From the IMG/VR virus record IMGVR_UViG_3300031539_000026: a stretch of 62,273 nucleotides of DNA; one strand, 5' to 3'. Shown piece after piece: positions 18,733 to 62,273 of this stretch. The position numbers were made by a program, and so were the translations under genes. The notes beneath the pieces were generated by a model. The model was given only the letters and a program-made list of their open reading frames with translations, had not been told where the DNA came from and did not search any database. Every line of letters begins with the position of its first letter. Position 1 is the first letter of the stretch. This DNA is from a virus.

Positions 18733-19023
18733 TCAGTTTTTTACCTCCCTGAGAATTTCACGCTGCATCGTAATCATCTGCTGTTGTGCAACATCAATTC
18801 GGTCTATCTTCTCATCAAGTCTTTCAATGTCCTTACCGATGCTCGTTACCGCTATGGTATTTGAGTCAATTTTCGGCACGAACTTTGATATTGTCCCCGT
18901 ATTCATTTCAACGCTTTTGCAGATCCCCGCCGCGTTCCATATCCAAACCAATGAGGCAAGAAGCAAAGCCGCCAACGAGCCTATTATAACCTTCAAGAAA
19001 GTACCGTTCTTTGTTTTGTCCAT
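18733..19023 (-). CDS. Membrane-anchored coiled-coil protein
   Basis: One TM segment (VIIGSLAALLLASLVWIW) followed by a heptad-like tail. Confidence 0.45.
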   Translation of the reverse strand: MDKTKNGTFLKVIIGSLAALLLASLVWIWNAAGICKSVEMNTGTISKFVPKIDSNTIAVTSIGKDIERLDEKIDRIDVAQQQMITMQREILREVKN

Positions 19024-19041
19024 TTTGTTTTCCCCTTCGTT

Positions 19042-21381
19042 TTAGCTCGCTTGCCTCACATTAAGGCTGTAAGTTTTCGACAGACATCTATATCTGACCT
19101 CGTCCGCGCAGTTATGAACAATGACCCCGTTGACTAAGACAAAGCAGTGGGTTAGATGTGCATCCAGGCAGTAAACGTCTGAAAAACCTGCTTGTTCAAC
19201 TCGCTTGACGGCCAAGCTTCCCACCGCAACGGCAGGAGCAGGTTTTGTTTGTATAATATTTACTAACGACAAAGATTTTTCCGCATACAATACATTTGCG
19301 CTCGATGTTATCTGCCCCTGTTTTTCTGCGATATGCAGACTTGCAATTATTCGAGCAGTAAAGCGAGCGAATGCCGCCGATAAACTCTTTGCCACAATTC
19401 CGGCAGTTTTTATCGACTTTTCTATGCAAAGCCTCATGGCAGTGCTTTTGATATTGCTGTTTGTGCCAGTCAATACCTTCTTTGCTCCCGTGCCATATCC
19501 GGGCCGCTTCGCGAGCTTTTGATACATCCTCGTTGCAATCGCCCTGAGCATGATGCTTTTGAATATGTTTACTCTGTTGAATAATTTCGAGATTGTCGAT
19601 GTCGTTATTTGTTCTGTCGCCGTCGATATGGTGGACGCTAAAACCTTTTGGGATTGTTCCGTGATGATATTCCCATACTTTGCGATGAAGTCTGACACCT
19701 TTGTTCTGGTAATAGTATCCGCACAAATAATATGGCTTACCTTGAAATTCTTGTCGTCTGGCTGATATGATTTCGACTTCCATTCCTTAGCCTCTTTCCA
19801 TTGGTTATTGGCTGTCAATATTTTATGATCACCAGTGCATATTATAAACGAATCATCCTCAAAAGTAATGCGAAATACTTCTATATTTTTCCTCGTTAAT
19901 TTGCAGTTTTTGTATTCAGTCCAATAGCCACCCGCTGTCAAAACTAAACCTTCAGTTCCTACTAATTCTCGTATTGGAAAATTTCCTTTTGAGGTTACAA
20001 TGAGTGTGTCACCGTGCAAACAGTGATCCTCGGCGGCGCTATCGACATCGTCAGCCTGGCGTTTGTCTCTCGGAAGGACCGGAACCGTTCTTATGAATTG
20101 CCGGCATGTGTCGAACACATAAAACCCGGGACCTTCCCTGCTGATAGAGTTTTTTAAACGCACCCTGAGAATTTCCCAGCCGTTGATCCTGCTGCCTGGC
20201 GACTTGTTTGCCCGCGTCCACCTGATGCCCATTCTCTCCATATCGCTTGCGATACAATTTCCGTTCTCAACTGTGAATATCTCGGTATCAGCCGGGCCGG
20301 GATTAACATTTCTGCCGAGTGCTCTTTCGTATTCACGTATTTTTCTCGCAATTTCGGTAGGAATTTCGCGAGTGCCCTCGTTTGGCTTACCAGTCCAGCC
20401 GTAAATCTCCGCTATGCGAAATAGGTCTCCCCGCTGCGTTGCTCTAAGTGAACCATCATTCAACTTGACATCGCAGCCATCAGACTCCGCCCAAAACCCG
20501 ACAGAATAGGGTCTGCTGCTGCCCCTATCGAAAGACCTGTCAATCTTCCACGTCGCCGGTATCTCGAAGGGCGCAACGATATGAACCTTGCTGTCCCAAA
20601 CATCGTCGAACATTCCTCCGGCTACGATATCCCAGTCACCTTCGAGCCATGCGGCGCGCCTTGCCCCTGTCTGAGATCTCAGCATGTTCACGTAAGCCGG
20701 ATCGTTTTGCAGGACAATCAAATTCTCCCAAATCGTTCCATGTATCGCAACCCTCTCCGTGCCATCTTCGTCCAATATGACAACTTCCCTCGGGGCCGGA
20801 TCTACAAACCGAGCTTTCACCCAGTTGTGACCGACGCCATAAGGATTGCAACTGGCCCTGTAATGGTGAGGAACGTTGGGATCCGACGACCTGCAGACCG
20901 TTCGCATTGTCATGTAAAGCTCATCGTCGGGCCACAAAGTCAATTCATCCCATCCGATCCAGGGGTATTCGTGGCCGTGATAATTCCAGTAGTCGTCTAT
21001 GTTCCTGGCGTAGCGAAACAGGAGCTGCTCGCCGTCCGGGAATATCCACCTGTGACTTGACCCGTTGTATATAGCTCCCGGAAAGATTTGATAAAAAAAC
21101 CGCTTGGATTTGATCTCAATTTCTTCCAGGTCCGGATACTGCAAGCGAAACAGGATCCCACGCCAGGCAGGGCCGTAACCCCTGCCCACGAACTGAGCAT
21201 AATCCATCAATAGCGCATCGGTCTTGCCCGGCCCTCTCGTACCTTCGTAAAGGCACTCGAAAATCGGGCATGAAAGAACTCTTTGCTGGCTTCCTGGGAG
21301 CGGAGACCAGACAACGTTTAATTTTTCTTTTCCTGCCCGCCCGGCTCTTCTACTTTTACGTTTTGACTTTGTTTTAACCAT
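19042..21381 (-). CDS. terL: Terminase large subunit, interrupted by an intein
   Basis: Walker A is GTRGPGKTD. After removing residues C495-N798 (full-ORF numbering), the nuclease-end motif reads DVDSAAEDH/CADEVRYRC. Start taken at MVKTKSK (21381). Confidence 0.9.
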   Translation of the reverse strand: MVKTKSKRKSRRAGRAGKEKLNVVWSPLPGSQQRVLSCPIFECLYEGTRGPGKTDALLMDYAQFVGRGYGPAWRGILFRLQYPDLEEIEIKSKRFFYQIFPGAIYNGSSHRWIFPDGEQLLFRYARNIDDYWNYHGHEYPWIGWDELTLWPDDELYMTMRTVCRSSDPNVPHHYRASCNPYGVGHNWVKARFVDPAPREVVILDEDGTERVAIHGTIWENLIVLQNDPAYVNMLRSQTGARRAAWLEGDWDIVAGGMFDDVWDSKVHIVAPFEIPATWKIDRSFDRGSSRPYSVGFWAESDGCDVKLNDGSLRATQRGDLFRIAEIYGWTGKPNEGTREIPTEIARKIREYERALGRNVNPGPADTEIFTVENGNCIASDMERMGIRWTRANKSPGSRINGWEILRVRLKNSISREGPGFYVFDTCRQFIRTVPVLPRDKRQADDVDSAAEDHCLHGDTLIVTSKGNFPIRELVGTEGLVLTAGGYWTEYKNCKLTRKNIEVFRITFEDDSFIICTGDHKILTANNQWKEAKEWKSKSYQPDDKNFKVSHIICADTITRTKVSDFIAKYGNIITEQSQKVLASTISTATEQITTSTISKLFNRVNIFKSIMLRAIATRMYQKLAKRPGYGTGAKKVLTGTNSNIKSTAMRLCIEKSIKTAGIVAKSLSAAFARFTARIIASLHIAEKQGQITSSANVLYAEKSLSLVNIIQTKPAPAVAVGSLAVKRVEQAGFSDVYCLDAHLTHCFVLVNGVIVHNCADEVRYRCLSKTYSLNVRQAS
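19111..20022 (-). mobile_element. Intein (304 aa) in TerL
   Basis: N-terminal CLHGDTLIV, block B TGDHKILT, C-terminal VYCLDA..HCFVLVNGVIVHN followed by +1 Cys. Confidence 0.85.
19196..19783 (-). CDS. HNH (HNH_3-type) homing endonuclease, encoded out of frame inside the intein
   Basis: LHRKVWEYHHGTIPKGFSVHHIDGDRTNNDIDNLEII plus C-terminal Cys pairs. It has its own ATG with AAGAGG..AAGGA upstream. Its frame is offset from terL. Confidence 0.8.
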   Translation of the reverse strand: MEVEIISARRQEFQGKPYYLCGYYYQNKGVRLHRKVWEYHHGTIPKGFSVHHIDGDRTNNDIDNLEIIQQSKHIQKHHAQGDCNEDVSKAREAARIWHGSKEGIDWHKQQYQKHCHEALHRKVDKNCRNCGKEFIGGIRSLYCSNNCKSAYRRKTGADNIERKCIVCGKIFVVSKYYTNKTCSCRCGGKLGRQAS

Positions 21382-21869
21382 TCTTCCTTGCTCATCGGAG
21401 GCGCCACCACTAACACGCCGGCGTTCTTTATCTCGCCGCTGTGCTTGATATTTTGAGTGTTCTTCCAGTTGTCCGGATCGCGGTTTGTAGTCCAGAATAT
21501 ACACGCTGCCGTGTCCGGCGGTACCTGCTTTGTGGTTTTCCTTATCACCCTTCTTTGAGTTAGCGGCTGCCCAGTCTGATTCTTCTGTTGTGCCCCGGTG
21601 TCTGTTATCTCCGTATGAATCTCGTCGTATTCGTAGCCGGTAGCCCGTTTATGCAGGGCATTTACTACCAAAGCAGTGGCGTCCAGGGCTCCTTTTTTTA
21701 TCATGTCCCGAAATACCCGAAATTCCTTCTTGTACCTATCCCATGCTGATCTACCTACGCCCAAGCTTTTTGCTATACTTTTCTCTGTATGCCCACTCCG
21801 CAGGAACCCTTTTATGACCTCAAAATTAGGCTCGACGTGGGTATGATATTTTGACTTCCTGCCTGCCAT
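21318..21869 (-). CDS. terS: Terminase small subunit
   Basis: HTH-like SIAKSLGVGRSAWDRYKK, then ACIFWTTNRDPDNWKN. Start at 21869 is coupled to the upstream stop (TAATG). Confidence 0.7.
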   Translation of the reverse strand: MAGRKSKYHTHVEPNFEVIKGFLRSGHTEKSIAKSLGVGRSAWDRYKKEFRVFRDMIKKGALDATALVVNALHKRATGYEYDEIHTEITDTGAQQKNQTGQPLTQRRVIRKTTKQVPPDTAACIFWTTNRDPDNWKNTQNIKHSGEIKNAGVLVVAPPMSKEEWLKQSQNVKVEEPGGQEKKN

Positions 21870-22069
21870 TACTCGAACGCCCTCCGCAGACCGAACAGCC
21901 TTGTCGTTTGCCATTCATCGAGACTGTCTGCACTCTTTTTCAGTTGCTTTTTCTGAGCGTTCGTCTTAGGTTCGATTTGCAGAATAAGCCCCATCGCCTG
22001 GCCCGCCAGGTTCTCTACCTGCTCGACCAAACAGATGTTGACATTCGGATTGTTGCCGTTCTCTGCCAT
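21869..22069 (-). CDS. Small hypothetical protein
   Basis: 66-aa ORF, translationally coupled to terS. Confidence 0.4.
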   Translation of the reverse strand: MAENGNNPNVNICLVEQVENLAGQAMGLILQIEPKTNAQKKQLKKSADSLDEWQTTRLFGLRRAFE

Positions 22070-22120
22070 ACAGCACAGAATAACGGCTAATGAAGTGATT
22101 TTACTTGAATTGCGGGATTG

Positions 22121-22348
22121 TTATTGGCATTTTCTCAAACATGAAAAAGTAATTCGCAAGCCATTTTCGACTTGGTCGCAACTTAGACCCAAGCTACCGA
22201 GAACACGAGCAAACTCTGTCATCCCGGCATGAATCTCATCGTCGGACAAGTCGGATGTGTCTACGCCCCAAAACAAAAGCTCTCTGCGTATTCGATTGAG
22301 AGCCCTTCGTGTTCTCCAGTTGACAAAAGCTTGTTTGATTCTGTTCAT
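22121..22348 (-). CDS. Small hypothetical protein
   Basis: 75-aa ORF in the operon. Confidence 0.4.
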   Translation of the reverse strand: MNRIKQAFVNWRTRRALNRIRRELLFWGVDTSDLSDDEIHAGMTEFARVLGSLGLSCDQVENGLRITFSCLRKCQ

Positions 22349-22357
22349 GGCTCACCT

Positions 22358-22558
22358 TCACCTTCTCTTTCTATCCCAATGCAGCCCCCGATTTAAGCTC
22401 ATATACCCGGCAAGTATTATAATCGGCCGTCGAGACAAAAGCCAGGGTGATAATTTTTTATCCGCTGCCGGCCAGTATTTCAAACATATACCCCAGCCGC
22501 CATATTTCGAAAAGCACCAACCGTAAACCCCGCCGAGTATTTCAAAGAGTTCGTTCAT
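22358..22558 (-). CDS. Small hypothetical protein
   Basis: 66-aa W/G-rich ORF. Confidence 0.35.
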   Translation of the reverse strand: MNELFEILGGVYGWCFSKYGGWGICLKYWPAADKKLSPWLLSRRPIIILAGYMSLNRGLHWDRKRR

Positions 22559-22817
22559 TCTTTATTTTTATCCATTTTTCCCTTGAAGGGCAGTTGGCCA
22601 AAGCCCAGTTACGCAATTCAACCACCGAGAATCGGACGCATTTACTACTCAGACGAATCAGCCGCGGGCCGATCCTGCCAGCAGATAGCAGCCGATAGAA
22701 CATGGCAACTGATATATCCAGCATCGCGGCAGCTTTTTTAGCATCGACGAGAACAGCCTCGATGTCACTTTGTGCTTTCACTTTTGCTTTGCTTGGTATT
22801 TTAAATCTTTCATCCAT
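22542..22817 (-). CDS. Excisionase/AlpA-type HTH DNA-binding protein
   Basis: AAAMLDISVAMFYRLLSAGRIGPRLIRLSSKCVRFSVVELRNW. Confidence 0.6.
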   Translation of the reverse strand: MDERFKIPSKAKVKAQSDIEAVLVDAKKAAAMLDISVAMFYRLLSAGRIGPRLIRLSSKCVRFSVVELRNWALANCPSREKWIKIKNERTL

Positions 22818-22875
22818 ATTCGAGAGTCCTAAAAATGGAGAGCCGGATTAACCGACTCCCCAAATTGAAAAAACT

Positions 22876-22958
22876 GTTCTGTCTTGTCGGGTCGCGTCAA
22901 GTCCCGTCCTGTCACGTCCAATCGGGTCTCGTCAGGTCAAGTCTCTTCTTGTCATGTT
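22876..22958. repeat. NNGTC pentanucleotide array A (~17 units)
   Basis: GTC at 22881, 22886, 22891 ... 22951 in an unbroken 5-nt phase. 13 exact GTC; variants are ATC/TTC/GTT. Confidence 0.9.
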
Positions 22959-22988
22959 TATTTCGTTTTCTACGCCCTCAATAAAATA

Positions 22989-23121
22989 GTCTTGTCTTGT
23001 CTGGTCCCGTCTGGTCCCGTCGAGTCGCGTCGAGTCGCGTCGAGTCGCGTCGAGTCGAGTCGCATCGGGTCCCGTCAAGTCGCGTCCAGTCGCGTTATGT
23101 TGCGTCAGGTCGGGTCGCGTC
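22989..23121. repeat. NNGTC pentanucleotide array B (~27 units)
   Basis: GTC every 5 nt from 22989 to 23119. 24 exact GTC. Includes (gagtcgcgtc)x3. Confidence 0.9.
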
Positions 23122-23686
23122 AATCTACTTTATTCCAAGTCACTTCGACCACTTCGAATCGGCCAAAAAATCCATTGTTTCTTGGTCTGGAAAATCCTAT
23201 ACCGATGAATTTTCCCGCCTGCTCCAGGACATACTTGAAAACATCTTCTGTGATAGTTTCGTCAAAAACGTAGAATGTTACAGTAGCTTCCCATTGCTGC
23301 GTGATAGGAAAGTGCTTTTCTACCCGCCTAGACCCGCCACGCTTTCCGTCGGCAGGAACAAACAGAGACAATTTTTGCATTTTATCTATGTGAATTCCAA
23401 GCGGCACTATCTCGGAAACCATAACTCCGGCCTCAAAATGCTTTGTGTACGTGGCCTTGCCTTTGCCCGGTATCTGCATTGAGAGGTATTTTGCCGCCTC
23501 CGATAAGCAGTTCTTGAACGCCGTCGGCGGGATAAAGACCATCCCTTTATCATCGGTATGGCAACGGTTACGCCATGTGCGATTTTCGTAATCCGCCGAG
23601 CCTTCCTTCTCAATCTTTTCCGTGTTATGATACCGACTTTGCCCATACGGGCTTGCTGATTTGAGTTTTGTTTTTACTGTAATCAT
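23120..23686 (-). CDS. Conserved-looking hypothetical protein bracketed by the pentamer arrays; C-terminal glycine-rich loop
   Basis: 188 aa from MITVKTK (RBS GAAAGGAAAG). Ends FIGIGFSRPRNNGFFGRFEVVEV. The upstream 42 codons of the ORF-track entry are array read-through. Confidence 0.6.
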   Translation of the reverse strand: MITVKTKLKSASPYGQSRYHNTEKIEKEGSADYENRTWRNRCHTDDKGMVFIPPTAFKNCLSEAAKYLSMQIPGKGKATYTKHFEAGVMVSEIVPLGIHIDKMQKLSLFVPADGKRGGSRRVEKHFPITQQWEATVTFYVFDETITEDVFKYVLEQAGKFIGIGFSRPRNNGFFGRFEVVEVTWNKVD

Positions 23687-23737
23687 CTTTCTTTCCTTTC
23701 TTAAATAAAAGTGTGTTGTCTTGAATAAAAAATTCTT

Positions 23738-23825
23738 GTCTTGTCGCGTCCTGTCCTGTCGAGTCCCGTCGAGTGTAGTCATGTCGCGTCCAGTCGTGTC
23801 AAGTCCGGTCAAGTCTAATCATGTT
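23738..23825. repeat. NNGTC pentanucleotide array C (~18 units)
   Basis: GTC in phase from 23738 to 23813. 15 exact GTC. Confidence 0.9.
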
Positions 23826-23854
23826 TATTTTGTTTTCACCTCCAAAAAAAGCCT

Positions 23855-23937
23855 GTCTTGTCGCATCATATCACGTCCCATCCCGTCCGGTCGAATCCCG
23901 TCGTGTCCAGTCGCGTCATGTCGAGTCAGGTCATGTC
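23855..23937. repeat. NNGTC pentanucleotide array D (~17 units)
   Basis: GTC/ATC in phase from 23855 to 23935. 13 exact GTC. Confidence 0.9.
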
Positions 23938-23976
23938 GAGCTAATTTCGTTTTCTGCGCCCTCCAAAAAAAGGCTC

Positions 23977-24054
23977 GTCTTGTCTTGTCGAGTCCAGTCT
24001 TGTCACGTCCCGTTGAGTTGGGTCCGGTCCGGTCGCGTCGAGTCATGTCAAGTT
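23977..24054. repeat. NNGTC pentanucleotide array E (~16 units)
   Basis: GTC/GTT in phase from 23977 to 24052. 13 exact GTC. Confidence 0.9.
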
Positions 24055-24569
24055 GTCTTATGTCCGTTTTGAAACAATTTAAGTGTCTGCTGGGTTGGCA
24101 ATTCCAGTATATTATGCTCCTGGATATACGCTGTTAATTGTTTTGGTGTCTGGCGTCTCGTAAACAGGGCCGTCGCTCCAAGCTTGCTAAGTTCCACGGC
24201 CAAGGGAAGTATTTGTTCCGGCGACAGTTCCTTTCCTGTAATTGCATTGAGAATTCTCTTTCTATGTTTTTGAGAGTGACGATGCAGGTGAGCATTTGTT
24301 TTTCCACCAATACCAGCGTAATCGGTAGTCACTCGAAGCCCTTCATTCATTACAGGCTCAATCACAATCTGAAAATCCTTCTCAATTCTTTTGCGGGCTG
24401 TGCTTAATAATCCGCGGGCATTCATTTGAACATTCCGCCCGATGCTTGATGATAATTCCTCGTAGCTGATTTCAGCTTGCTTGTTCTTTATAAATTTACT
24501 TTCCATAACATTGTAAAGAATTCTTGTGTCCGTGTGCATTTCAGCGATTGTAATTCGTCTCGTTTCCAT
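24048..24569 (-). CDS. Hypothetical protein (possible regulator)
   Basis: 173-aa ORF ending at the edge of array E. No motif recognised. Confidence 0.45.
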   Translation of the reverse strand: METRRITIAEMHTDTRILYNVMESKFIKNKQAEISYEELSSSIGRNVQMNARGLLSTARKRIEKDFQIVIEPVMNEGLRVTTDYAGIGGKTNAHLHRHSQKHRKRILNAITGKELSPEQILPLAVELSKLGATALFTRRQTPKQLTAYIQEHNILELPTQQTLKLFQNGHKTT

Positions 24570-24583
24570 AATTGATTCCTTTC

Positions 24584-24973
24584 TTAAATACCATTTTCGT
24601 TATTATCCAACGCGACTAATACTTTTCTCATATCAACGTCGCCGAAAACCTGCCGGTCACTCCTTCGCATATAGTATTGGATCATCTTGGCGTGCCAGTC
24701 CTTTCTGTTCCTTTTCCGCAGCTTATCTATAACCATTTGCGCGAACTTATACGGCACAGACACGGCTACGACGGGCTCGTTTAAGTCAAGCCTGAATATC
24801 TCAGTAAGGAGCTGGTGGTGAGTTTTGCTTATATTGTTTATCCGTAACTGCAAATACTCCTCAGCCTCTTTCCTGCCCTGGAGCCTTGCAGCCAGCACAT
24901 CTTCCACCGTGTACGTTTTTTGAGGCTTAGCATTTTCCATGAAGCACTTCCCTGTTAACGCCGCCCTTCGCAC
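24584..24973 (-). CDS. Hypothetical protein
   Basis: 129-aa ORF (alternative start at 24940). Confidence 0.4.
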   Translation of the reverse strand: MRRAALTGKCFMENAKPQKTYTVEDVLAARLQGRKEAEEYLQLRINNISKTHHQLLTEIFRLDLNEPVVAVSVPYKFAQMVIDKLRKRNRKDWHAKMIQYYMRRSDRQVFGDVDMRKVLVALDNNENGI

Positions 24974-25298
24974 TCATTGCCATATCGACGGCCTTCTTGA
25001 TCGCTTTATGAATCCAGATGAATGAATTCCTGTTGTCGTCGAGCACCAAAATCGAATTGAGCATAAATATCTGCTCCCAGGTCAGGTCCAGCAAGGCCAT
25101 TGTTTTGCCTGTCCAGTCGATAGCCCAATGACAAGAAAGATGCAGCTCGGTTGCTATTTCTTCGACGCAACCCTGCCCCCTCAGCCTGGCAAAGCTTACG
25201 AACTCGGCAAACTGCATAAACTGCCCAAAGCTGAACCCGATAAAAGAAATAAGCTCGGGCTCTTGTTCGTTGTCAACTTTCACCTGCATGATTTTCAC
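24927..25298 (-). CDS. Hypothetical protein
   Basis: 123-aa ORF. Confidence 0.4.
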   Translation of the reverse strand: MKIMQVKVDNEQEPELISFIGFSFGQFMQFAEFVSFARLRGQGCVEEIATELHLSCHWAIDWTGKTMALLDLTWEQIFMLNSILVLDDNRNSFIWIHKAIKKAVDMAMSAKGGVNREVLHGKC

Positions 25299-25839
25299 CG
25301 CCTTTCAGGGCTTGCTCGTCGGGATAAAACTCACTGACATCGTGAGAACCTTTTAATAGTGGGCATGAATCATAATGTTCTTTCAGCGTGGCATTCTCGG
25401 CAGTCAGGCGGTCGATGATGTCGCAGGCTTTGATGTCCCACTCGTACTTTATTTTGATATTTGTTTTTCTCATCTCAGCTATATCTTTATCATAAAGCCT
25501 GTCTACATTTTCGATTTCTACATCATATCTGCTTCGACGTATTTTCGTAAACTCCGTCGGATCAGGCTTCTTTTGAAGCTGGTCGATGTAATCGCAGCAA
25601 TCTATCAACATCAAAGCAAGAGAGCCAACCCGGGTGCCCTGCCCGTCTTTGACGCTTCGGGCATCTCTACGCATACCGTCAGTGTCTATGTATAGCACCG
25701 TCGGCTCAGGCTCGGACTCAAGAAGTTCAAAGATTTCATTGAAGCCATCTTCCATTATTTTGCCCCAACCAAGCGGCTGCATCCGGTGTGTTTTTCTCAT
25801 ATCATGCAGTAATTTAATTGCTTTATTTATTCTACTCAT
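25273..25839 (-). CDS. Hypothetical protein
   Basis: 188-aa ORF. Confidence 0.45.
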   Translation of the reverse strand: MSRINKAIKLLHDMRKTHRMQPLGWGKIMEDGFNEIFELLESEPEPTVLYIDTDGMRRDARSVKDGQGTRVGSLALMLIDCCDYIDQLQKKPDPTEFTKIRRSRYDVEIENVDRLYDKDIAEMRKTNIKIKYEWDIKACDIIDRLTAENATLKEHYDSCPLLKGSHDVSEFYPDEQALKGGENHAGES

Positions 25840-25862
25840 TTGTCACTTCCTTTCTCAAAACA

Positions 25863-25907
25863 AGCGGGTAAACGGATTCGAACCGCCTCTCTCAACTGGA
25901 AGCTGAG
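25863..25907 (-). pseudogene. tRNA-Gly(UCC)-like 3-prime fragment (anticodon arm, T arm and 3-prime acceptor strand only)
   Basis: Minus sense: CTCAG-CTTCCAG-TTGAG-AGA-GGCGG-TTCGAAT-CCGTT-TACCCGC-T. No complementary 5-prime acceptor strand or D arm lies upstream. Confidence 0.55.
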
Positions 25908-25920
25908 CGTGTCGCCTGTG

Positions 25921-26274
25921 TCACTTCAATACTTTCTCCAGTCTGACTACAACAGCTTCCCATTCTTCATCGAGATCGGCGGTCTCAATGTAGCGGCAAC
26001 TGCCCAACCATCTAAGACGATTAGTTAGAAGGTGCAATACTTCATGTCTTGCGTTAGACTCCGGCCCCCTGTCACACTTGACATCGTCCTTACTTAATTT
26101 CGTACATAGTTTAACACAAGCAACCTTACCTAACTCATTGACAGTAACTTGGGCAAAACTATCTTCGAGATTCTCATGGAAGAAGTCTATGCGGTACTGC
26201 GTCAGCCCAAGTTCCTTCTGCCACTTAAGGAACTCCGCCTTGAACTTCTCGAAATACGCTTTAGATGTTTTCAT
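25921..26274 (-). CDS. Small protein with HExxH motif (possible Zn-metallopeptidase-like)
   Basis: The only recognisable motif is ARHEVLHLL. Confidence 0.35.
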   Translation of the reverse strand: MKTSKAYFEKFKAEFLKWQKELGLTQYRIDFFHENLEDSFAQVTVNELGKVACVKLCTKLSKDDVKCDRGPESNARHEVLHLLTNRLRWLGSCRYIETADLDEEWEAVVVRLEKVLK

Positions 26275-26288
26275 TTATCTCTAATCTC

Positions 26289-26678
26289 TCACAAATTGAC
26301 TCTGTCGATGTTGTGGAAAAACGCCAGCAGCCCGGCTATATCGTTCCGATGGCACTTGCTGTAATCGGCTTCCATGCACATTATTGCAACAGTGTAACTT
26401 TCAGACAGTTCCACAAGCCGCTTGCAACCTTCGAGCCACTGATCTTTTGTGCATGTGAAGCCGCCCAGGATCTGCCCCAGCCACAAGTATTGTATCTCTT
26501 GCTTGTTTAATGCCAGGCTGAAACGCTTCTGATTGAAACCCGCTATCCGGCTGAATGGCCTTTCTCGCAGGTCCACAAGAAGCGTTACGCCTGCCTTTTT
26601 GAGTATTGCGATGAGTCCTTCTGGCGTCTTTCCCTGATAGCCAACATTGTAAATTGTTTTTCGTTTTTTAGTTTTCAT
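26289..26678 (-). CDS. DUF488-family protein
   Basis: IYNVGYQGKTPEGLIAILKKAGVTLLVDLRERPFSRIAGFN ... AIMCMEADYSKCHRNDIA matches the DUF488 pattern (tiGy..., vDvR..P.S., C.E.....CHR). Confidence 0.65.
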   Translation of the reverse strand: MKTKKRKTIYNVGYQGKTPEGLIAILKKAGVTLLVDLRERPFSRIAGFNQKRFSLALNKQEIQYLWLGQILGGFTCTKDQWLEGCKRLVELSESYTVAIMCMEADYSKCHRNDIAGLLAFFHNIDRVNL

Positions 26679-28181: not shown

Positions 28182-28664
28182 TCAAAAATTGGTTAATGCA
28201 AATTTGCCAAAATATTTGAATGCTGCTGCGTCATAGACTTTTGCCGCTTCGATTTCGTTATCAAATAGACCGAGATAAATATTGTGACCATCAATTTGAA
28301 TATATGCCTGCCATTTATGCCCGCCTTTGTGCCAGGAAACGCCTTTGAATGTGGACGAACCACCCCTGTATGGATTCCCATTCTGATGGTTTTGTGAGCA
28401 GGTGCAAATTCTAAGTTTATTCCGTCGGTTATCAAGACCGTTATGATTCTTGTGGTCGCCTTGTCGTGGGTCGCTATGCTTCAGGCCCAGTATCTCTCGG
28501 TGCATATATATCATTCGCCATTTTCCATTTGGTAAGAGAGTGCTTCTTCCGGCATAAAATGTTTGAGGCCTTTTATAAGCACACCATTTATGTTTGTTAA
28601 GTCTCTCGAAATCGGCGTCATCGACCATGGCAAACATTCCTCGCGTAAGGGGTATTTGTTTCAT
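28182..28664 (-). CDS. HNH endonuclease fused to an AP2 DNA-binding domain
   Basis: [27 protein letters not shown] (HNH), then [46 protein letters not shown] (AP2). Confidence 0.85.
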
Positions 28665-32443: not shown

Positions 32444-33331
32444 TTACTCCTTAGCCTTAACTACTCTCGCCCTATACCCGATTTCTTCATCCAGCCTTGA
32501 GAAGAACAACGCCATCGGATTGCGTCCATTTTTCGACTCCTTCGCCATATCAGCCACCCGCCGGAATATGCTTTCATCGAACCTTTTCGCCAACACCTGT
32601 AGATTGAGCCAGTTGCCTAGATTTCTGATTGCCGATCTGTCAGACTTCGAGCGAGCGTTGAGAATTTGCCCTAGTGCCGAATCGAACCGAAGCGAAAACG
32701 AATTAGATTTAAAATCTCCGAAATTCACTTCATCGCCATTATTACCTGTCTGTGAGTTTTGCAGTCCCCCGGGATTTTCCAGGAGTGTTTCGTTTCGTTC
32801 TGTTTCGTTCTGTTCGGTTTCGTTTCGTTTCGTTTCGTTATATAAGGCTCCTGATTTTCCTGGAATTTCTGGAAAACCTTGACTTTCACTCGCTGTTTTT
32901 GGCTGTTTTTTACTTTCCTGATTTTCCTGGAATTTCTGGAATTCATCATTTGGAACTTCTTTAACCCACGCAACTTGTTCATCTAAAAGGACTTGTAATG
33001 CAAAGTCGATACTCTCAATAGACATGCTAAGAATAAAAGCCAGATCTTCAATTGTTGCCGGCTTGCCGCGTGCATTGAGCAATTGGCCTTTTCTTATCTC
33101 GCTTGACTCACTTCCCGCAATTTCCAGGAATTTCTGGAAAATACCAAAGACCTCGTATGTTTTATCACCCGCCCGATGCTGCATCGCTTTGAAACCGGCG
33201 CCTTGAGCGCGGCCATGCCTCTTTGAACGGATATACTCAAGCGGCCTGACGCGGAGCTTGTCGCCTATCCTTGCCGGTTGGCCTTTGTCGTTGACCTCGT
33301 ATCGCTCAAGCCATTCAGTGATTACATACAT
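32444..33331 (-). CDS. Replication organiser/initiator-like protein (winged-helix N-terminal domain)
   Basis: Start at MYVITEW. Pattern ...KGQLLNARGKPATIEDLAFILSMSIESIDFALQVLLDEQVAWV. The gene contains iterons, as lambda O does. Confidence 0.5.
   Translation of the reverse strand: MYVITEWLERYEVNDKGQPARIGDKLRVRPLEYIRSKRHGRAQGAGFKAMQHRAGDKTYEVFGIFQKFLEIAGSESSEIRKGQLLNARGKPATIEDLAFILSMSIESIDFALQVLLDEQVAWVKEVPNDEFQKFQENQESKKQPKTASESQGFPEIPGKSGALYNETKRNETEQNETERNETLLENPGGLQNSQTGNNGDEVNFGDFKSNSFSLRFDSALGQILNARSKSDRSAIRNLGNWLNLQVLAKRFDESIFRRVADMAKESKNGRNPMALFFSRLDEEIGYRARVVKAKE
32773..33139. promoter_or_regulatory. Putative origin of replication: 3.5 iterons plus a (GTTTC)n tract inside the replication gene
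   Basis: ctgattttcctggaatttctggaa at 32851 and 32918; aatttccaggaatttctggaa at 33119; half-site gattttccagga at 32773; about 10 GTTTC-type pentamers at 32787-32839. Confidence 0.55.
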
Positions 33332-34154
33332 TATCGCATCCCTGCTTAAATAATTTCCGGTACAGCCCCGGCTTAGCCCAGAGATGACATAAGTCGTGCC
33401 ATTCTCCCCTTGACGGTCCTGCGGTTTCGCCGCGGTAAAGCTGTGCGAACGGCAGAAACCCCTTGCGATAAACCGCCACGCACCTTTCCTGGGCCTGAGC
33501 CTGCGTTTCACCATCCTTACCAACCAAGACATAGCAGCGTTTCTTCTCTATTGAATAATCACTTAGAAGATCCACCGCCTTATCAAGCCTGGGTAAATCC
33601 TCTTTACAATCACAGGCAACCCATAGCTCGGCCACTTTGATTTTCTTGAACAGTTCTACGTGCCATGGTTTAAGATAATCGATATCCAAGCCACCCTTGA
33701 ACTCGATGGGTTTCGGTTGCAATTTCAACATTTCAAATACGGTTTCGATATGCTTGACCGAGCACGCCAGCAGGTTATTGTCCTGTACGATATACCCAGG
33801 CTGAATTTTCAATTCTCGCAGTTTCCCTTCTCGCTGATGAACCAGGCACCATGCACATCGTTTTGGGCAGCCGCGAGAAGTGAACGTCACACCTTCCTTG
33901 ACGAATCGGCCTGGCACGAACTCGCCGCCGGGATCGCCGAAGGCCGGGCCGCCAACCCGAACATTATCGAAATGCAGCGACCAGGCCCTCGCCAAGGCGT
34001 AAGCCTTCTCTATATCCCATGTAAAAGTTGCAGATACTAAAACCGGCTCACTGGACTTCCAGTTTCGTACAAACAAAGGGGGACTCGTATAGAACGCCAA
34101 CTCATCTGTTGGCGGCGGCGTCCATTTCGTTTTTCTCGCGAATACCCGAATCAT
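33315..34154 (-). CDS. Radical-SAM-motif protein
   Basis: TSRGCPKRCAWC gives CX3CX2C at residues 96/100/103. Confidence 0.5.
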   Translation of the reverse strand: MIRVFARKTKWTPPPTDELAFYTSPPLFVRNWKSSEPVLVSATFTWDIEKAYALARAWSLHFDNVRVGGPAFGDPGGEFVPGRFVKEGVTFTSRGCPKRCAWCLVHQREGKLRELKIQPGYIVQDNNLLACSVKHIETVFEMLKLQPKPIEFKGGLDIDYLKPWHVELFKKIKVAELWVACDCKEDLPRLDKAVDLLSDYSIEKKRCYVLVGKDGETQAQAQERCVAVYRKGFLPFAQLYRGETAGPSRGEWHDLCHLWAKPGLYRKLFKQGCDNVCNH

Positions 34155-35931: not shown

Positions 35932-36735
35932 TTAAGCCCTCTTTTGCGCTGAATGTCCCATCACGCCCTCAAGCAGTATTTCACGGGCGGCCTGCTCGAC
36001 TTGTTCGGCGGCCGTTTTTTTATTCATCAGGATGTCGAGCTTCTTATTCCACCAGACGTCGGCAACCTGCTCTTTAGTAAACCCGTGCTCGGAAAAACAT
36101 TTGATTGCGACCAGGCTTTTTGGCGGAAAGGCCGTGTCATTATCCAGATCGAAATGCGTAGGCCGCGGGAATGCAGGCAGTATCTTCAAGTCATTTCTCG
36201 CACCGTATATGAACACCCTTATTCTTCGCTGAGGAACGCCATAGCCGCAAGCGTCGAGTTCGTTGAACCGGACCGTATAGCCTTTGCCTTCGAGCGATTC
36301 CAATAGCGTGACAAAAAAGTCTTTGAAGGCCAGCAGTCCAGGCACGTTTTCAATTACGAAATAACGGGGCTTCATTTCGCCTATCAGCCTGACAAAATGC
36401 CACATCAGCTTAGATCTCGGATCGTCTATCGAGCGAGCGTTATTTGAAAAAGAGAAACCCCGGCACGGCGGCCCGCCACTCAATATATCGAGCCGGCCTT
36501 TTTTGATCCCAGTCCGTATGAGAAGCTGCCTGCCGGATATCTTCGATATGTCCGCCTTGATGATTTCCGCTTTGGGGAATGCTTTTTTGTGATTTGCCGC
36601 CAGGGTTTGAAGGCATTGATCGTTAATCTCGACAAGCCCGACCACGTCGATACCCGCTTGCTGGAGTCCTAGTGCCATCCCACCGGCCCCGGCAAACAAT
36701 TCTATAGCTTTGAGTTTTTTTCTTTTAGTGTGCAT
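35932..36735 (-). CDS. DNA (cytosine-5) methyltransferase, short form
   Basis: Motif I ELFAGAGG, motif IV GGPPCRGFS, motif VI FVIENVPGL, motif VIII PQRRIRVFIYG. No obvious GN[AS]V motif X. Confidence 0.8.
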   Translation of the reverse strand: MHTKRKKLKAIELFAGAGGMALGLQQAGIDVVGLVEINDQCLQTLAANHKKAFPKAEIIKADISKISGRQLLIRTGIKKGRLDILSGGPPCRGFSFSNNARSIDDPRSKLMWHFVRLIGEMKPRYFVIENVPGLLAFKDFFVTLLESLEGKGYTVRFNELDACGYGVPQRRIRVFIYGARNDLKILPAFPRPTHFDLDNDTAFPPKSLVAIKCFSEHGFTKEQVADVWWNKKLDILMNKKTAAEQVEQAAREILLEGVMGHSAQKRA

Positions 36736-38482
36736 TCGTGATTAAAATTAAATTTCCATGGCAATTCGAGCATAGATCAGGTTCTACCCAGTGACAGGGC
36801 TCGCCATCATCACCAATGCAGGCCTTATCGTCTGTGCATTTGCATATTCGGCAGCTTTGAACTTTGTCTTTTTTGCCGGACTTTTTGGGCTTCGCTTTCT
36901 CTGTTTTTGCCTTCTTTGCAGGCTTTACCTTCTTCGGCGTGCCGTCCGCGTTAAGCCCGGCCCAGGACTTCGGCTCAGTAAAGCCTTTGCGACCCGAAAC
37001 GTCCTTGAGCATCGCCTTGACGTCCGCCTTGATAAGCGAGGCAATCCGCTCAGCTTCCTCTACCATATTTATCGGCGTCTGTGTGATCGGCCCTGACCAA
37101 ACAAGATGCCTTATAAGAGTAGGCTTGAAGCTTTCCCATAACAGCTCCAGTGCCTTGCCGGGACCCTCCTTAATTGCGGACTTGATTGTTTTCAGTTCAT
37201 CCGCATCACACAGCGGTAATCGATCATTCCCATAGACGGCAACCAGCACCATCAAAGCGGTTATGGGGTCTTTGTGATTGATATCCTTGACCCCGGAAGC
37301 CTCAACTTTTTCCTGCAAATCAAGCAAGACCTGTGCCCACCTTTTCGCGCCGAGCATTTTCCGCCTCACCGTCAACGTTGTAGGCTTGCCTATAATCGCC
37401 TTCGTGGACGAACCCGACTTTTTCGTCTTTACATAAGTGAGATTGCCCATACCCTTTCCGTACAGACAAAGCGCCGGCAGAGCACCTTTCGCACCTTTGG
37501 ATGCAGAGGTATGATCCCACTTTGACAAGTAAGTTCCGAAGCTGCCCTGTAACCATTGAGCATCGATCTGGTTTGGGTAGTCGTTTACTATCAAGACGAG
37601 ATTTGGATGCTTTTCCTTGAGTGACGCAAACGTGCGCTTCAGCCATTCACTCAGCTTGTTTTTCCAGCAGGCCGAATCGATGCACTTGTCGCCCGCGGCC
37701 GTCTGTGTCTTTGCATCTTCCCACAGCATCGGCTGCGAGCCTGTCCGCTTGTTACATTTCGAGCAGGCCCCCGCCTTCGGAACAAGCGTCTGATCGTCGA
37801 GATCCCACTTTGCCTTACTGAGCAGCTTGAGGTATTCTGCAATCAGCTCGTTAAGCTGGCTTATAGGCATAAACTCGGGCTCGAAAATGTTATCCATGAT
37901 CTCATCTTGTACGGCCTCCGGAAGCCTCGCAATAATAGACAAGTGCGCTATCGTCCAAGAACGATATTCTTCGTTTTTGTCGATGTCCTTGAAAATCGCC
38001 TTCCATATTTTAGACAAGTTGGACCAGACGTTCGCCCTTTGCCTGACCCACCCTTCCTCCTTTCCGATCCTCTTTGCGATTGCGGCCGCATTCCCGCCGA
38101 GCCGCTCGATGCAGTTTGCGATTTCCTCCGCTTCTTCCATAGGCGACAGGTCTTTGCGGAACTTGTTGCCGATGAACGTCATATCGAGAGCATCTTCATC
38201 GTCCATTTTGTCGTGAACGATAGCCGGTATCGTTTTGACCTTTGCCGCTATCGATGCCCGGTACCGCCTTTCCCCGTCCCTCAGCTCGAACTTGCCCGGC
38301 TGATCGGGATGGACTCTGACGTGAATAGGGTCACGCACGCCGCCGGCCATGATACTGGCTACCAGCTCGGGGAAGTCCTCATCCTTCTCGATATTCTTTC
38401 GCATGTTGTCTTTCGTCGGGACGATCTGATCGAGCGGGATCAACTTGAAATTTGTGTTGTTTGCCTGGTTTGTGTTACTCAT
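36725..38482 (-). CDS. ParB-like N-terminal-domain protein with Cys-rich C-terminus
   Basis: IPLDQIVPTKDNMRK...DPIHVRV...ELRDGERRYRA; C-terminal CRICKC...CHW...CSNCHG. Confidence 0.75.
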   Translation of the reverse strand: MSNTNQANNTNFKLIPLDQIVPTKDNMRKNIEKDEDFPELVASIMAGGVRDPIHVRVHPDQPGKFELRDGERRYRASIAAKVKTIPAIVHDKMDDEDALDMTFIGNKFRKDLSPMEEAEEIANCIERLGGNAAAIAKRIGKEEGWVRQRANVWSNLSKIWKAIFKDIDKNEEYRSWTIAHLSIIARLPEAVQDEIMDNIFEPEFMPISQLNELIAEYLKLLSKAKWDLDDQTLVPKAGACSKCNKRTGSQPMLWEDAKTQTAAGDKCIDSACWKNKLSEWLKRTFASLKEKHPNLVLIVNDYPNQIDAQWLQGSFGTYLSKWDHTSASKGAKGALPALCLYGKGMGNLTYVKTKKSGSSTKAIIGKPTTLTVRRKMLGAKRWAQVLLDLQEKVEASGVKDINHKDPITALMVLVAVYGNDRLPLCDADELKTIKSAIKEGPGKALELLWESFKPTLIRHLVWSGPITQTPINMVEEAERIASLIKADVKAMLKDVSGRKGFTEPKSWAGLNADGTPKKVKPAKKAKTEKAKPKKSGKKDKVQSCRICKCTDDKACIGDDGEPCHWVEPDLCSNCHGNLILITNAH

Positions 38483-61801: not shown

Positions 61802-62209
61802 TTACCCGATATCATCGGCATAGAACGGGCATTCGACGTTAATCTGCCATTCATCGCCGCTCCTGCCGCGAGGGTATGTTGATGGAGTCCTAAATGTGAC
61901 CCCGGTGTCCGTAACTCGCTTAAAAGCCGTTTCGACCGCATCGGCCACCTCTAATAATGCTCCATCCCCCTTGCCGACAGGACCAAATAACTGTGCTATC
62001 ATAACCCCCGGCGTCCGGCCCCTGTTTCCCGTCGGGCTTCCTACCGACTTTTGAAGAGTTTCCCCAAACTTAACAGTCAGCCTGCACCATTTCGCATTGT
62101 CCGGATTGTCGTATTTTTGATTGTCGTATTGAGTGCCCAAAGACAGGGCGTCCGCTACCTGAGCCTTGAACCTGCTGCGTATCGCGTTGGCTATTGCTGT
62201 CTTTGTCAT
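61802..62209 (-). CDS. Tail terminator-like protein (DUF4128-like)
   Basis: 135 aa immediately upstream of the tail tube gene. Its N-terminal coding sequence is duplicated at 118-180. Confidence 0.55.
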   Translation of the reverse strand: MTKTAIANAIRSRFKAQVADALSLGTQYDNQKYDNPDNAKWCRLTVKFGETLQKSVGSPTGNRGRTPGVMIAQLFGPVGKGDGALLEVADAVETAFKRVTDTGVTFRTPSTYPRGRSGDEWQINVECPFYADDIG

Positions 62210-62273
62210 TCAATCACCGTGAACATATTCCTGAGCTCTTCGATTGTTATTGCAAGCATACCTTCCGGGGCCT
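62147..62273. repeat. Right-end 127-nt exact copy of 118-244 (circular closure / terminal redundancy)
   Basis: ggcgtccgctacctgagcc...accttccggggcct read at both places. The last 32 nt also equal 1-32. Confidence 0.9.

Follow-up and report, generated by a model that had tools for sequence, protein, structure and literature searches.

The window analysed here is the whole stretch of IMG/VR virus record IMGVR_UViG_3300031539_000026, 62,273 nucleotides long. Besides TerS and an intein-bearing TerL it encodes a portal, tail proteins, an integrase and RecT/YqaJ; the two ends overlap, as expected when a circular molecule is assembled, and the host element is a temperate tailed phage. Five arrays of pentanucleotide repeats surround a gene for a 188-aa protein (vipr, for reasons given below), three upstream and two downstream as a first-pass annotation of the sequence had placed them, and TerS and TerL come next. 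The minus-strand order is candidate vap, three arrays, vipr, two arrays and terminator (Table 1). A blastn search with positions 19000-26000 against 50,697 phage records matched the TerL gene only.

Table 1 Coordinates of the repeat module and of phage genes referred to in the text
Feature	Position	Strand	Description
Intrinsic terminator	22836..22862	-	From a consensus scan; 11-bp stem then TTTTT; closes the module
vrRNA array E	22879..22953	-	15 units: 13 variable, then GACAA GACAG
Inter-array spacer 3	22954..22986	-	TTTTATT GAGGGCGTAGAAAACGAAATAAACAT
vrRNA array D	22987..23121	-	27 units; begins within the vipr stop codon; (GACGC GACTC)n sub-repeat
vipr gene	23120..23686	-	Predicted 188-aa single-RRM RAMP (Cas7-like), G-rich loop GIGFSRPRNNGFFGRF
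vrRNA array C	23736..23815	-	16 units: 14 variable, then GACAA GACAA
Inter-array spacer 2	23816..23852	-	Degenerate copy of the spacer 1 element
vrRNA array B	23853..23937	-	17 units: 15 variable, then GACAA GACAG
Inter-array spacer 1	23938..23974	-	Minus sense GCC TTTTTTT GGAGGGCGCAGAAAACGAAATTAGCTC
vrRNA array A	23975..24049	-	15 GACNN units: 12 variable, then GACAA GACAA GACGA; T-run after
Candidate vap (173-aa protein)	24048..24569	-	Synteny and weak fold match; 3' end enters array A
TerS	21318-21914		Terminase side of the arrays
TerL, intein-bearing	19042-21504		Beyond the arrays with TerS
ParB-N domain protein	36725-38482

The five phased arrays were present essentially as first annotated, with plus-strand GTC running in register, in one phase per run, through 22881-22953, 22989-23121, 23738-23815, 23855-23937 and 23977-24049. 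Between 22876 and 24054, 64 pairs of GTC were separated by +5 nt, against a mean of 0.4 and a maximum of 5 in 1000 mononucleotide shuffles, an excess of about 150 times the shuffled expectation; the density of such pairs was 54/kb in the array region and 0.25/kb elsewhere in the window. The period-5 signal thus passed the shuffle control that the annotation had proposed. Read on the minus strand, the arrays hold 90 triplet slots (78 GAC, 6 GAT, 4 AAC, 1 CAC and 1 GAA), which agrees with the 78 or so exact triplets counted before and lowers the earlier total of about 93. The variable positions (NN) use 16 of 16 dinucleotides, with near-even base use. Tandem Repeats Finder reported periods of 5, 10, 15, 20 and 40 for the arrays; as all periods in the region are multiples of 5 nt, with no 25-40-nt direct repeats separated by unique spacers, we rejected a CRISPR array, as the annotation had done.

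Arrays A, B, C and E comprise 15-17 units (75-85 nt) and array D comprises 27, a number that is 25 in two other assemblies of the same phage. An A-run followed by CTTGTCTTGTC precedes all five arrays in plus sense, the leader that had been described earlier, and the 3' end in minus sense is constant in all five: GACAA GACA(A/G) G.., then a T-run (a U-run in RNA). The previously noticed common element of about 30 nt was also found; it is confined to the gaps between consecutive arrays, where it stands before B, C and E in minus sense, and it is kept between arrays both in the window and in one relative (L001). The terminator that closes the module folds at -22.6 kcal/mol (z=-4.35), a stability that none of 200 shuffles reached. 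No stable fold was predicted in the inter-array spacers, nor any structured 3' tail. Rfam gave no match in the array region or in four related loci, and thus no hammerhead-type processing element; promoter-like matches in the array region were no more numerous than chance.

The 188-aa protein, already put forward as a candidate binder of the arrays, is a member of phrog_4652 with 2439 homologs. A profile built from 60 of its family matched PDB 36pp_D, ‘SUSP1 Vipr protein’, with E=2.5e-9, and the single sequence matched 36pp in phmmer at 1.6e-5. Searching by tblastn with the protein found the vipr CDS of phage phiSUSP1, which served as a positive control; GGT/GGC pentanucleotide arrays flank this CDS on the strand that encodes it. 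The AF2 model (pLDDT 92.6) contains a G-loop at residues 162-176 and a beta-hairpin at residues 104-129 with a Gly-rich tip, a putative thumb assigned by secondary structure alone. Foldseek placed type VII (~190-200 aa) and type III-A Csm subunits (~200 aa), including Csm3 (5yjd), at the top of its matches, with probability 1.0. A cluster look-up returned no UniProt accession tying the family to the preprint seed proteins. Homology and the modelled fold together identify the gene as encoding a Vipr protein with a predicted Cas7-like RAMP fold.

VIPR (Viral Interference Programmable Repeat) is a CRISPR-like system of RNA-guided DNA silencing first described in 2026 (bioRxiv 10.64898/2026.04.26.720920, 10.64898/2026.04.26.720927). 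In the published systems, arrays both upstream and downstream of vipr, on the vipr strand, specify vrRNAs in which a conserved triplet alternates with hypervariable NN up to a constant 3' end; one Vipr protomer sits on each repeat, the NN pair with dsDNA, of which every third base is skipped, and competing phages are silenced (bioRxiv 10.64898/2026.04.26.720920, 10.64898/2026.04.26.720927). Published vrRNAs have 9-16 repeats (~100 nt) and an invariable structured 3' tail, and next to vipr stands an accessory gene, vap, whose function is related to DNA. Types run from I to VII, and for the Escherichia phage SUSP1 and Pseudomonas fulva prophage systems (type II, GGY-type), expression, RNP formation, the 1-nt skip, silencing and the filament structure have been reported (bioRxiv 10.64898/2026.04.26.720920, 10.64898/2026.04.26.720927). 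The triplet consensus is given as YNNGG (GGY), with NNNGG, YNNNG and NNNNG as alternatives and ‘a related consensus’ allowed; in SUSP1, GGY>GAY is among the substitutions reported as abolishing silencing (bioRxiv 10.64898/2026.04.26.720920, 10.64898/2026.04.26.720927).

The locus shares with these systems the Vipr homology, the RAMP fold, flanking pentanucleotide arrays on the vipr strand and a viral location, while its triplet is GAC (YNNGA in the preprint notation) and not GGY. From sequence, structural model and analogy, we consider it highly probable that 22836-24569 constitutes a VIPR module, carried by a temperate tailed phage, in which guide RNAs built on a GAC triplet would direct the silencing of rivals. 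The locus is a natural GAC variant of the recently published system, and the earlier view that the arrays were of no known type is superseded by the two preprints (bioRxiv 10.64898/2026.04.26.720920, 10.64898/2026.04.26.720927).

The 173-aa protein encoded at the upstream end had no matches in Pfam or PHROG. In its AF2 model (pLDDT 71 overall), residues 11-80 reach 85-92 and form a winged-helix-like helix-strand-helix-helix-hairpin; Foldseek matches were weak and mostly of MarR/GntR/BlaI type (best E=0.028). Of 38 related loci, 11 have a homolog of it beside vipr, in most cases on the downstream side, past vipr and one array. We propose the 173-aa protein as a candidate vipr-accessory protein (vap), with a presumed role in the module. 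The HTH_17 gene at 22542-22817 was rejected as vap, as none of the related loci encodes a homolog.

Among 119 loci with a Vipr relative (46-91% identity), most have period-5 arrays beside the gene, with mostly 9-16 variable units per array and a long tail above. In a phage whose Vipr is 91% identical, the GAC triplet, the flanks and the 3' units are kept and every NN is changed. On the annotation's question whether phase and GTC are conserved while the spacers drift, the 5-nt period is kept in most of these loci and the triplet differs by lineage. On the gene strand, the arrays of GGC-type relatives finish with GGCAA GGCAA GG and those of the window with GACAA GACAA GA, and this homology of 3' ends fixes the array orientation.

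Within this one Vipr clade we found the triplets GGC, GAC, GTC, GTT, CGC, CTC, AGC, AGT and GGT, with a pyrimidine as third base in every named class. GAC co-varies with three Vipr residues (Arg165 lost, Glu106 lost and Ser15 changed), each change having about 8-9 apparently independent switches on a neighbour-joining tree. The Arg165 position aligns with D177 of the SUSP1 G-loop, a G1-contacting residue, and Glu106 lies in the first strand of the putative thumb hairpin. These patterns tentatively suggest, at slightly less than an even chance in our estimation, that the vrRNA triplet is not a fixed GGY but a lineage-specific, evolvable handle co-evolving with a few residues of the Vipr pocket. 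The tracking of triplet switches by residues of the triplet-binding loop offers testable specificity determinants. Were the link causal, natural Vipr/vrRNA pairs would be mutually orthogonal, in which case co-resident phages would not load one another’s guides, and VIPR could provide a number of independent channels for parallel use as tools, directly useful in multiplexed programmable DNA binding. Natural GAC-handle systems exist, though a change of the GAC type is reported among those that inactivate SUSP1; because of that report, function of the GAC type would depend on co-adaptation of Vipr.

When 117 guides were scanned against 1.66 Mb for different pairing codes, a perfect match appeared only under the 1-nt skip. 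A guide of L139, a GAC-type relative of the window, matches the vipr genes of both L136 and L137 at 24 of 24 bases, with the skips on codon third positions. The vipr of L139 itself matches this guide at 18/24 and codes for an identical peptide, with switches of Ser TCG->AGY and Arg AGA->CGG; among synonymous changes, only six-fold codon switches of Ser and Arg alter codon positions 1-2, and by means of them the attacker’s own copy would escape. This match indicates that GAC-type systems follow the same 1-nt-skip code and appear to use it against rival vipr genes.

The guides of the window have no self-target in the whole phage genome (best 18/30). In IMG/VR, exact ten-unit patterns of guides A and C gave 0 matches; eight-unit seeds gave 48 for A, 12 for B, 31 for C, 30 for D and 7 for E, of which only B with L023 extended notably, and as these searches needed 16-20 exact bases in one viral collection, their negative outcome is weak. 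Guide B pairs with positions 741-785 of L023, in a phrog_3657 gene of the recombination module, at 25/30 NN with wobble-aligned skips, and about 0.1-0.3 extensions as good are expected by chance over all seeds; it is the sole candidate target among the window guides, and a weak one. The motif PRDPVxAMDRI is conserved in the L023 protein family, and the 120 closest homologs of the protein contained no better guide B match. None of the remaining window guides, and no guide of L001, matched L023, and the window recombinase has no homology to the L023 target gene. Matches of guide C to L085/L096 (23/28) were not significant, and guides of 158 relatives matched the window no better than a shuffled null.

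With five guides that have no convincing target in IMG/VR, and with a triplet and tail unlike those of characterised type II systems, the module might act otherwise here, as a sponge for rival Vipr, a regulator of host genes or a source of RNA-directed guides. The perfect DNA-code target that a GAC-type relative has in a rival vipr, together with the synonymous recoding of its own copy, argues against this, and the negative searches weigh little at the stringency given above; we consider such a different function improbable.

The position of the arrays invites readings of another kind. RHH/omega-type binders use short-period repeats, the arrays adjoin TerS/TerL, just upstream of the terminase genes, and the window also encodes a ParB-N domain protein, all of which would suit dsDNA sites for cooperative binding (pac/terminase recognition, a centromere or iterons). 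Against this, in the gene neighbourhoods of 38 related loci the arrays invariably go with vipr, not with TerS or ParB, and a TerS homolog is nearby in one, the closest relative. The arrays keep one polarity relative to vipr and have a constant 3' end; a 5-bp period would put successive sites on opposite faces of B-DNA; and full NN turnover at 91% Vipr identity is unfit for a site read by a conserved protein. We therefore regard dsDNA sites as very improbable. The annotation was right to set iterons aside, and the roles that it offered instead (pac site, centromere, late-transcription control or decoy) are unsupported, as the arrays follow vipr. Its main idea had been ring-shaped RNA-binding regulators. 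TRAP reads (G/U)AG repeats, a similar layout of triplet and 2-nt spacer, and the arrays lie upstream of the late operon on the same strand, as expected if a TRAP/HutP-like ring wrapped a leader RNA and thereby attenuated or activated transcription of the late (terminase) genes. Pfam, however, recognised no TRAP/HutP family among 10 neighbouring proteins, the partner conserved with the arrays is a RAMP, a strong terminator stands between the module and the genes that follow it, and in relatives the module is found in unrelated gene contexts. NN hypervariability and the 24/24 target of the relative further imply that the variable bases are informative, and a leader of this kind seems to us a most unlikely explanation. 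What survives of that proposal is an RNA that is most likely read at a 5-nt period through its fixed triplet, by a Cas7-like RAMP in place of a ring; the spacer bases described as varying freely would instead be guide information for 1-nt-skip pairing with DNA.

Repetitive D-x-T-R-x peptides have in their favour that ORFs of 63-73 aa cross some arrays on the minus strand, and we give them next to no credence: most minus-strand frames of every array contain stop codons, array D varies in length between same-phage assemblies by 10 nt, a difference not divisible by 3, and complete NN turnover in close relatives abolishes any peptide conservation. The arrays had been judged non-coding before, and these observations agree. 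The recognition site of T7-type primases is 5'-GTC-3', the plus-strand triplet; this candidate was dropped, as no primase was among the proteins scanned and the arrays track the RAMP gene. Rho rut sites, CsrA or Hfq sponges and type III toxin-antitoxin repeats were rejected on anatomy.

Computed directly here were the anatomy of the repeats, the homology and fold of Vipr, the conservation of gene and arrays as a module, NN hypervariability in close relatives, the lack of self-targets and the perfect 1-nt-skip target of a GAC-type relative. For a VIPR module at this locus, analogy with the published systems predicts that transcription of the arrays would yield (GACNN)n vrRNAs, each ending in constant GACAA GACAA units and a U-run, with individual vrRNAs presumably made from the arrays. 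Vipr would polymerise on the vrRNA with one protomer per 5-nt repeat, burying each GAC triplet and exposing the NN dinucleotides, which could then pair with dsDNA of the form (NNx)n, every third base being skipped. Once bound, the filament would block transcription of its target, which is most probably a gene belonging to a rival phage or to a satellite. We infer that vrRNA expression, filament formation, DNA binding and silencing apply in this way with GAC in place of GGY.

The resemblance to the SUSP1 and P. fulva systems extends to a small homologous RAMP, fixed-triplet pentanucleotide arrays with hypervariable NN on the vipr strand and on both sides of vipr, a constant 3' end, a phage location, a small accessory gene (a candidate here) and the lack of self-targets; the type II 1-nt skip with wobble-aligned skips is matched in a GAC-type relative of the window. 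The window differs from SUSP1 in its triplet (GAC, not GGY), and D177/W178 of the SUSP1 G-loop correspond to F165/S166 in the window Vipr, which is only ~31% identical to SUSP1 Vipr, over the C-terminal half only. SUSP1 has a pseudoknot tail, whereas no structured tail is predicted in the window. Arrays of 15-27 units compare with 9-16 in published VIPR, array D exceeding that range, and the candidate vap lies upstream of vipr.

Cas7/Csm3 filaments on crRNA in Class 1 CRISPR have the RAMP fold, G-rich loop and thumb hairpin also seen in Vipr, and both backbones place one protomer per fixed RNA step with periodic base flipping. The VIPR step is 5 nt with three bases buried, whereas that of Class 1 CRISPR is 6 nt with one flipped, and the window module shows no CRISPR repeat-spacer array and no cas1/cas2, Cas5, Cas6 or large subunit; the VIPR guide is non-contiguous. 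TRAP/HutP and VIPR both rely on an oligomeric protein that recognises, on single-stranded RNA, a fixed triplet recurring with 2-nt spacers between the copies. The folds differ (a RAMP filament in VIPR, an 11-mer beta-ring or hexamer in TRAP/HutP), and in TRAP the spacers are uninformative and the operon downstream is attenuated, whereas in VIPR the spacers are the guide and DNA is targeted in trans. VIPR, months old as a described system and proposed as the ancestor of CRISPR RAMPs, recognises DNA by a non-contiguous code with a minimal protein of ~20 kDa and an RNA of ~100 nt, and its period-5 signature makes it recognisable from raw sequence alone.

Five arrays flank the gene for a 188-aa protein, three upstream and two downstream, and each keeps a single 5-nt phase, as the first-pass annotation had claimed; Tandem Repeats Finder detects the same five. 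Read on the minus strand, 78 of the 90 slots are GAC (the others being 6 GAT, 4 AAC, 1 CAC and 1 GAA), and 16/16 dinucleotides are in use at the two variable positions (NN). Pairs of GTC at +5 numbered 64 in the array region, far above shuffled controls (mean 0.4, maximum 5; 1000 shuffles), a density of 54/kb versus 0.25/kb in the remainder of the window. The flanking motifs pointed out earlier also proved genuine: in minus sense, 5/5 arrays end in GACAA GACA(A/G) G.. followed by a T-run, and a ~30-nt element, TTTTTTT GGAGGGCG.AGAAAACGAAATAAACAT, is confined to the gaps between consecutive arrays. Neighbouring genes all lie on the minus strand, and beyond array E stands a strong intrinsic terminator. 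No folding was predicted for the inter-array spacers, and an Rfam search returned no match for the region or for four related loci. Arrays A and D are probably 3'-UTR-derived, because both start at the stop codons of the genes upstream.

Coordinates of the module, related sites and other features (window positions unless a locus is named)
Feature	Position	Strand	Detail
Array E, GTC run	22881-22953	plus	5-nt register, one phase
Array D, GTC run	22989-23121	plus	5-nt register, one phase
Array C, GTC run	23738-23815	plus	5-nt register, one phase
Array B, GTC run	23855-23937	plus	5-nt register, one phase
Array A, GTC run	23977-24049	plus	5-nt register, one phase
Array D, whole	22987-23121		27 units
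Array D, other assemblies	L035 10566-10690; L036 7347-7471		25 units
vipr	23120-23686	minus	188 aa, between arrays
vipr codon 165	23192-23194
Candidate vap	24048-24569		173 aa; homologs adjoin vipr in 11/38 loci
L139 guide	L139 1707-1776
Targets of L139 guide	L137 374-408; L136 749-783
Guide B site	L023 741-785
Long array tails in relatives	L010 3090-3900; L008 4560-5130; L016 4600-5000		with hairpins
TerL gene	19042-21504		Hint-like insertion
DUF488 protein	26289-26678		early region
AP2-domain protein	28182-28664		early region
(GAAAC)n repeat	32787-32839	minus	within 362-aa ORF 32444-33532
ParB-N domain protein	36725-38482		585 aa
End overlaps	62142-62273 = 113-244; 1-112 = 213-324

The 188-aa protein has no Pfam family, its sole PHROG match (phrog_4652) is of unknown function, and its 2439 homologs in metagenomes are unnamed. 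A profile from 60 homologs matched a single PDB sequence, 36pp, 'SUSP1 Vipr protein' (E=2.5e-9; E=1.6e-5 for the single 188-aa sequence), the Cas7-like RAMP protein of the VIPR (Viral Interference Programmable Repeat) system of Escherichia phage phiSUSP1, and tblastn against phage genomes matched phiSUSP1 and other Ounavirinae. In phiSUSP1, GGT/GGC pentanucleotide arrays stand on either side of the matched CDS and on the same strand as it, which reproduces the published system and validates our array reading. An AlphaFold2 model of the protein (pLDDT 92.6, pTM 0.85) had as its top Foldseek matches (probability 1.0, TM about 0.55) type VII subunits of ~190-200 aa and type III-A Csm subunits of ~200 aa, including Csm3 (5yjd). 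Its C-terminal GIGFSRPRNNGFFGRF is the RAMP G-rich loop, and a hairpin at residues 104-129 with a Gly-rich tip is likely the thumb. The feature is real and the locus is a VIPR module; VIPR as a kind has been known since 2026, and the window carries a naturally occurring variant in which the handle is GAC and pocket residues co-vary with it.

Two 2026 bioRxiv preprints describe VIPR. In the first (10.64898/2026.04.26.720920), Vipr is an early-branching RAMP of ~20 kDa, and its guide RNA (vrRNA, ~100 nt) consists of 9-16 YNNGG repeats, in which GGY alternates with hypervariable NN, then an invariable 3' tail; the systems are divided into seven types and are found chiefly in phage and prophage genomes. 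The NN bases pair with dsDNA with a one-nucleotide skip, usually at the codon wobble position. Target binding silences transcription, an effect strengthened by the accessory gene vap, and in nature the systems target rival satellites and prophages, other VIPR systems included. The second (10.64898/2026.04.26.720927) reports by cryo-EM a right-handed filament with one protomer per repeat, in which H17 and G-loop D177 read G1, thumb R138 and W178 hold G2, Y3 occupies a pocket with R179, and the NN dinucleotides are displayed for a gapped R-loop triplex. The first-pass annotation was right to propose a protein reading a fixed RNA triplet at a 5-nt step, the partner gene being vipr; its analogies with TRAP, HutP and ribbon-helix-helix sites, and its suggested roles in late transcription, packaging, partition or as a decoy, were not borne out for what is a VIPR module.

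We surveyed 22 IMG/VR, 16 MAG and 80 metagenome loci encoding relatives 46-91% identical to the window Vipr. Period-5 arrays lie directly beside vipr in most of them, with constant polarity, xxxAA xxxAA units standing at the 3' end on the gene strand (GGCAA GGCAA GG in GGC-type relatives), so the window vrRNAs are minus-strand (GACNN)n. In one related phage (L001/L132; Vipr 91% identical), the flanks, GAC and 3' units are kept and the NN bases are entirely different, a turnover of the kind that reprogrammed guides should show. In two further assemblies of the window phage, array D alone differs, one GACGC GACTC unit having been lost (25 units versus 27); array length therefore changes through slippage within a population. 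The window system has five guides and a tail without predicted structure, lacking the long conserved hairpin tails that follow arrays in GGC- and GTC-type relatives (for example, GGGAAGCGACTTATGGGCGCTTCCC), for which Rfam gave no match. No array was detected at nine Vipr-encoding loci (L116, L151, L160, L179, L180, L183, L191, L195 and L200), where arrays may be degenerate, of other repeat form or off the contig; L191 and L195 have Tyr at Vipr position 165.

The window triplet, GAC, differs from the published GGY of SUSP1. The first preprint gives YNNGG with the alternatives NNNGG, YNNNG and NNNNG, and reports that GGY perturbation abolished SUSP1 silencing, GGY>GAY being among the substitutions in its fig. 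S12B legend (10.64898/2026.04.26.720920). Within the surveyed clade the gene-strand triplet differs by lineage: GGC at 52 loci, GAC at 28, GTC at 6, CGC at 5, GTT at 2-3, and AGC, AGT, CTC and GGT at 1 locus each. All the named classes have a pyrimidine as third base, which fits the invariant R167, aligned to R179 of the SUSP1 Y3 pocket. In an alignment of 82 Vipr relatives (residues counted over a dereplicated 43 GGC and 27 GAC loci), three columns, 165, 106 and 15, best told GAC from GGC. Position 165, which aligns with the G1-contacting SUSP1 G-loop residue D177 (as 166 does with W178), is R at 43/43 GGC loci versus F, S, V, A or M at 25/27 GAC loci (Fisher's exact test P=5e-17, without phylogenetic correction). 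Position 106 is E or Q at 43/43 versus mostly L, M or N, and position 15 is S at 43/43 versus mostly G or T, with some S; a neighbour-joining tree gave ~8-9 changes for each of these traits. This is not a simple one-residue code, because two loci with GAC arrays (L123 and L171) keep S/E/R, and GTC, GTT and CGC types keep R165.

Scanning 117 guides from the window and relatives against 1.66 Mb of loci, at skips of 0, 1 and 2 nt and alongside a shuffled control, gave a perfect match under the 1-nt skip alone. A GAC-type guide upstream of vipr in L139, whose Vipr is 70% identical to that of the window, matched vipr in both L136 and L137 at 24/24 bases, antisense to codons 9-20 (chance expectation ~1e-6 over all guides, by our own arithmetic). 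The skips fall at codon third positions, and one of the skipped bases is not the same in the two targets. The vipr gene of L139 itself encodes the same peptide through Ser TCG to AGT/AGC and Arg AGA to CGG changes, plus K to Q, producing six NN mismatches; the Ser TCG to AGY and Arg AGA to CGG kinds are the sole synonymous changes able to escape this code. Together these findings back the published mechanism in the GAC clade, and the case looks like a VIPR-versus-VIPR conflict with synonymous escape.

The window guides had no self-target (best score 18/30), and ten-unit exact patterns of guides A and C had 0 matches in IMG/VR. Among 128 eight-unit seeds there, the single notable extension was of guide B in L023 (IMGVR_UViG_3300025867_000552), with 25/30 NN matched and 21/22 over the first 11 units. 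The site is antisense to a phrog_3657 gene beside a RecE-like exonuclease gene, with skips at wobble positions, and its peptide, PRDPVQAMDRI, is a conserved motif in a family of 5651 proteins. The extension (P=0.002; ~0.28 expected over all seeds, or ~0.09 with codon phase) is not significant once all seeds are corrected for, and no better fit was found among the 120 closest members of the L023 protein family; we treat the site as a lead, a candidate target of guide B. These searches are insensitive, because they required 16-20 exact bases and covered one viral collection.

The 173-aa protein is a candidate only for vap. Homologs of the downstream HTH_17 protein and of TerS do not adjoin vipr as its homologs do (38 loci). 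Its model (pLDDT 71) contains a winged-helix-like unit at residues 11-80 (85-92), with weak Foldseek matches to MarR/GntR/BlaI-type regulators.

The phage in the window is temperate and tailed, with genes for TerS, an intein-bearing TerL, portal, Mu-F-like and tail proteins, integrase, RecT/YqaJ, RusA, a C5 methyltransferase and a ParB-N protein. The ends of the window overlap, as those of circular or terminally redundant assemblies should, so it contains a single phage genome in full. Another period-5 repeat, (GAAAC)n, encodes NETKRNETEQNETERNET; we rejected it as a vrRNA because its near-identical units mark an ordinary coding tandem repeat. The ParB-N protein gene lies beside that of the C5 cytosine methyltransferase, and neither it nor the DUF488 and AP2-domain proteins had a link to arrays in relatives. 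In blastn against cultured phages, TerL was the sole match. The Hint-like insertion visible in the TerL translation is an intein, and the TerL gene call in L035 carries PF14890 (Intein_splicing).
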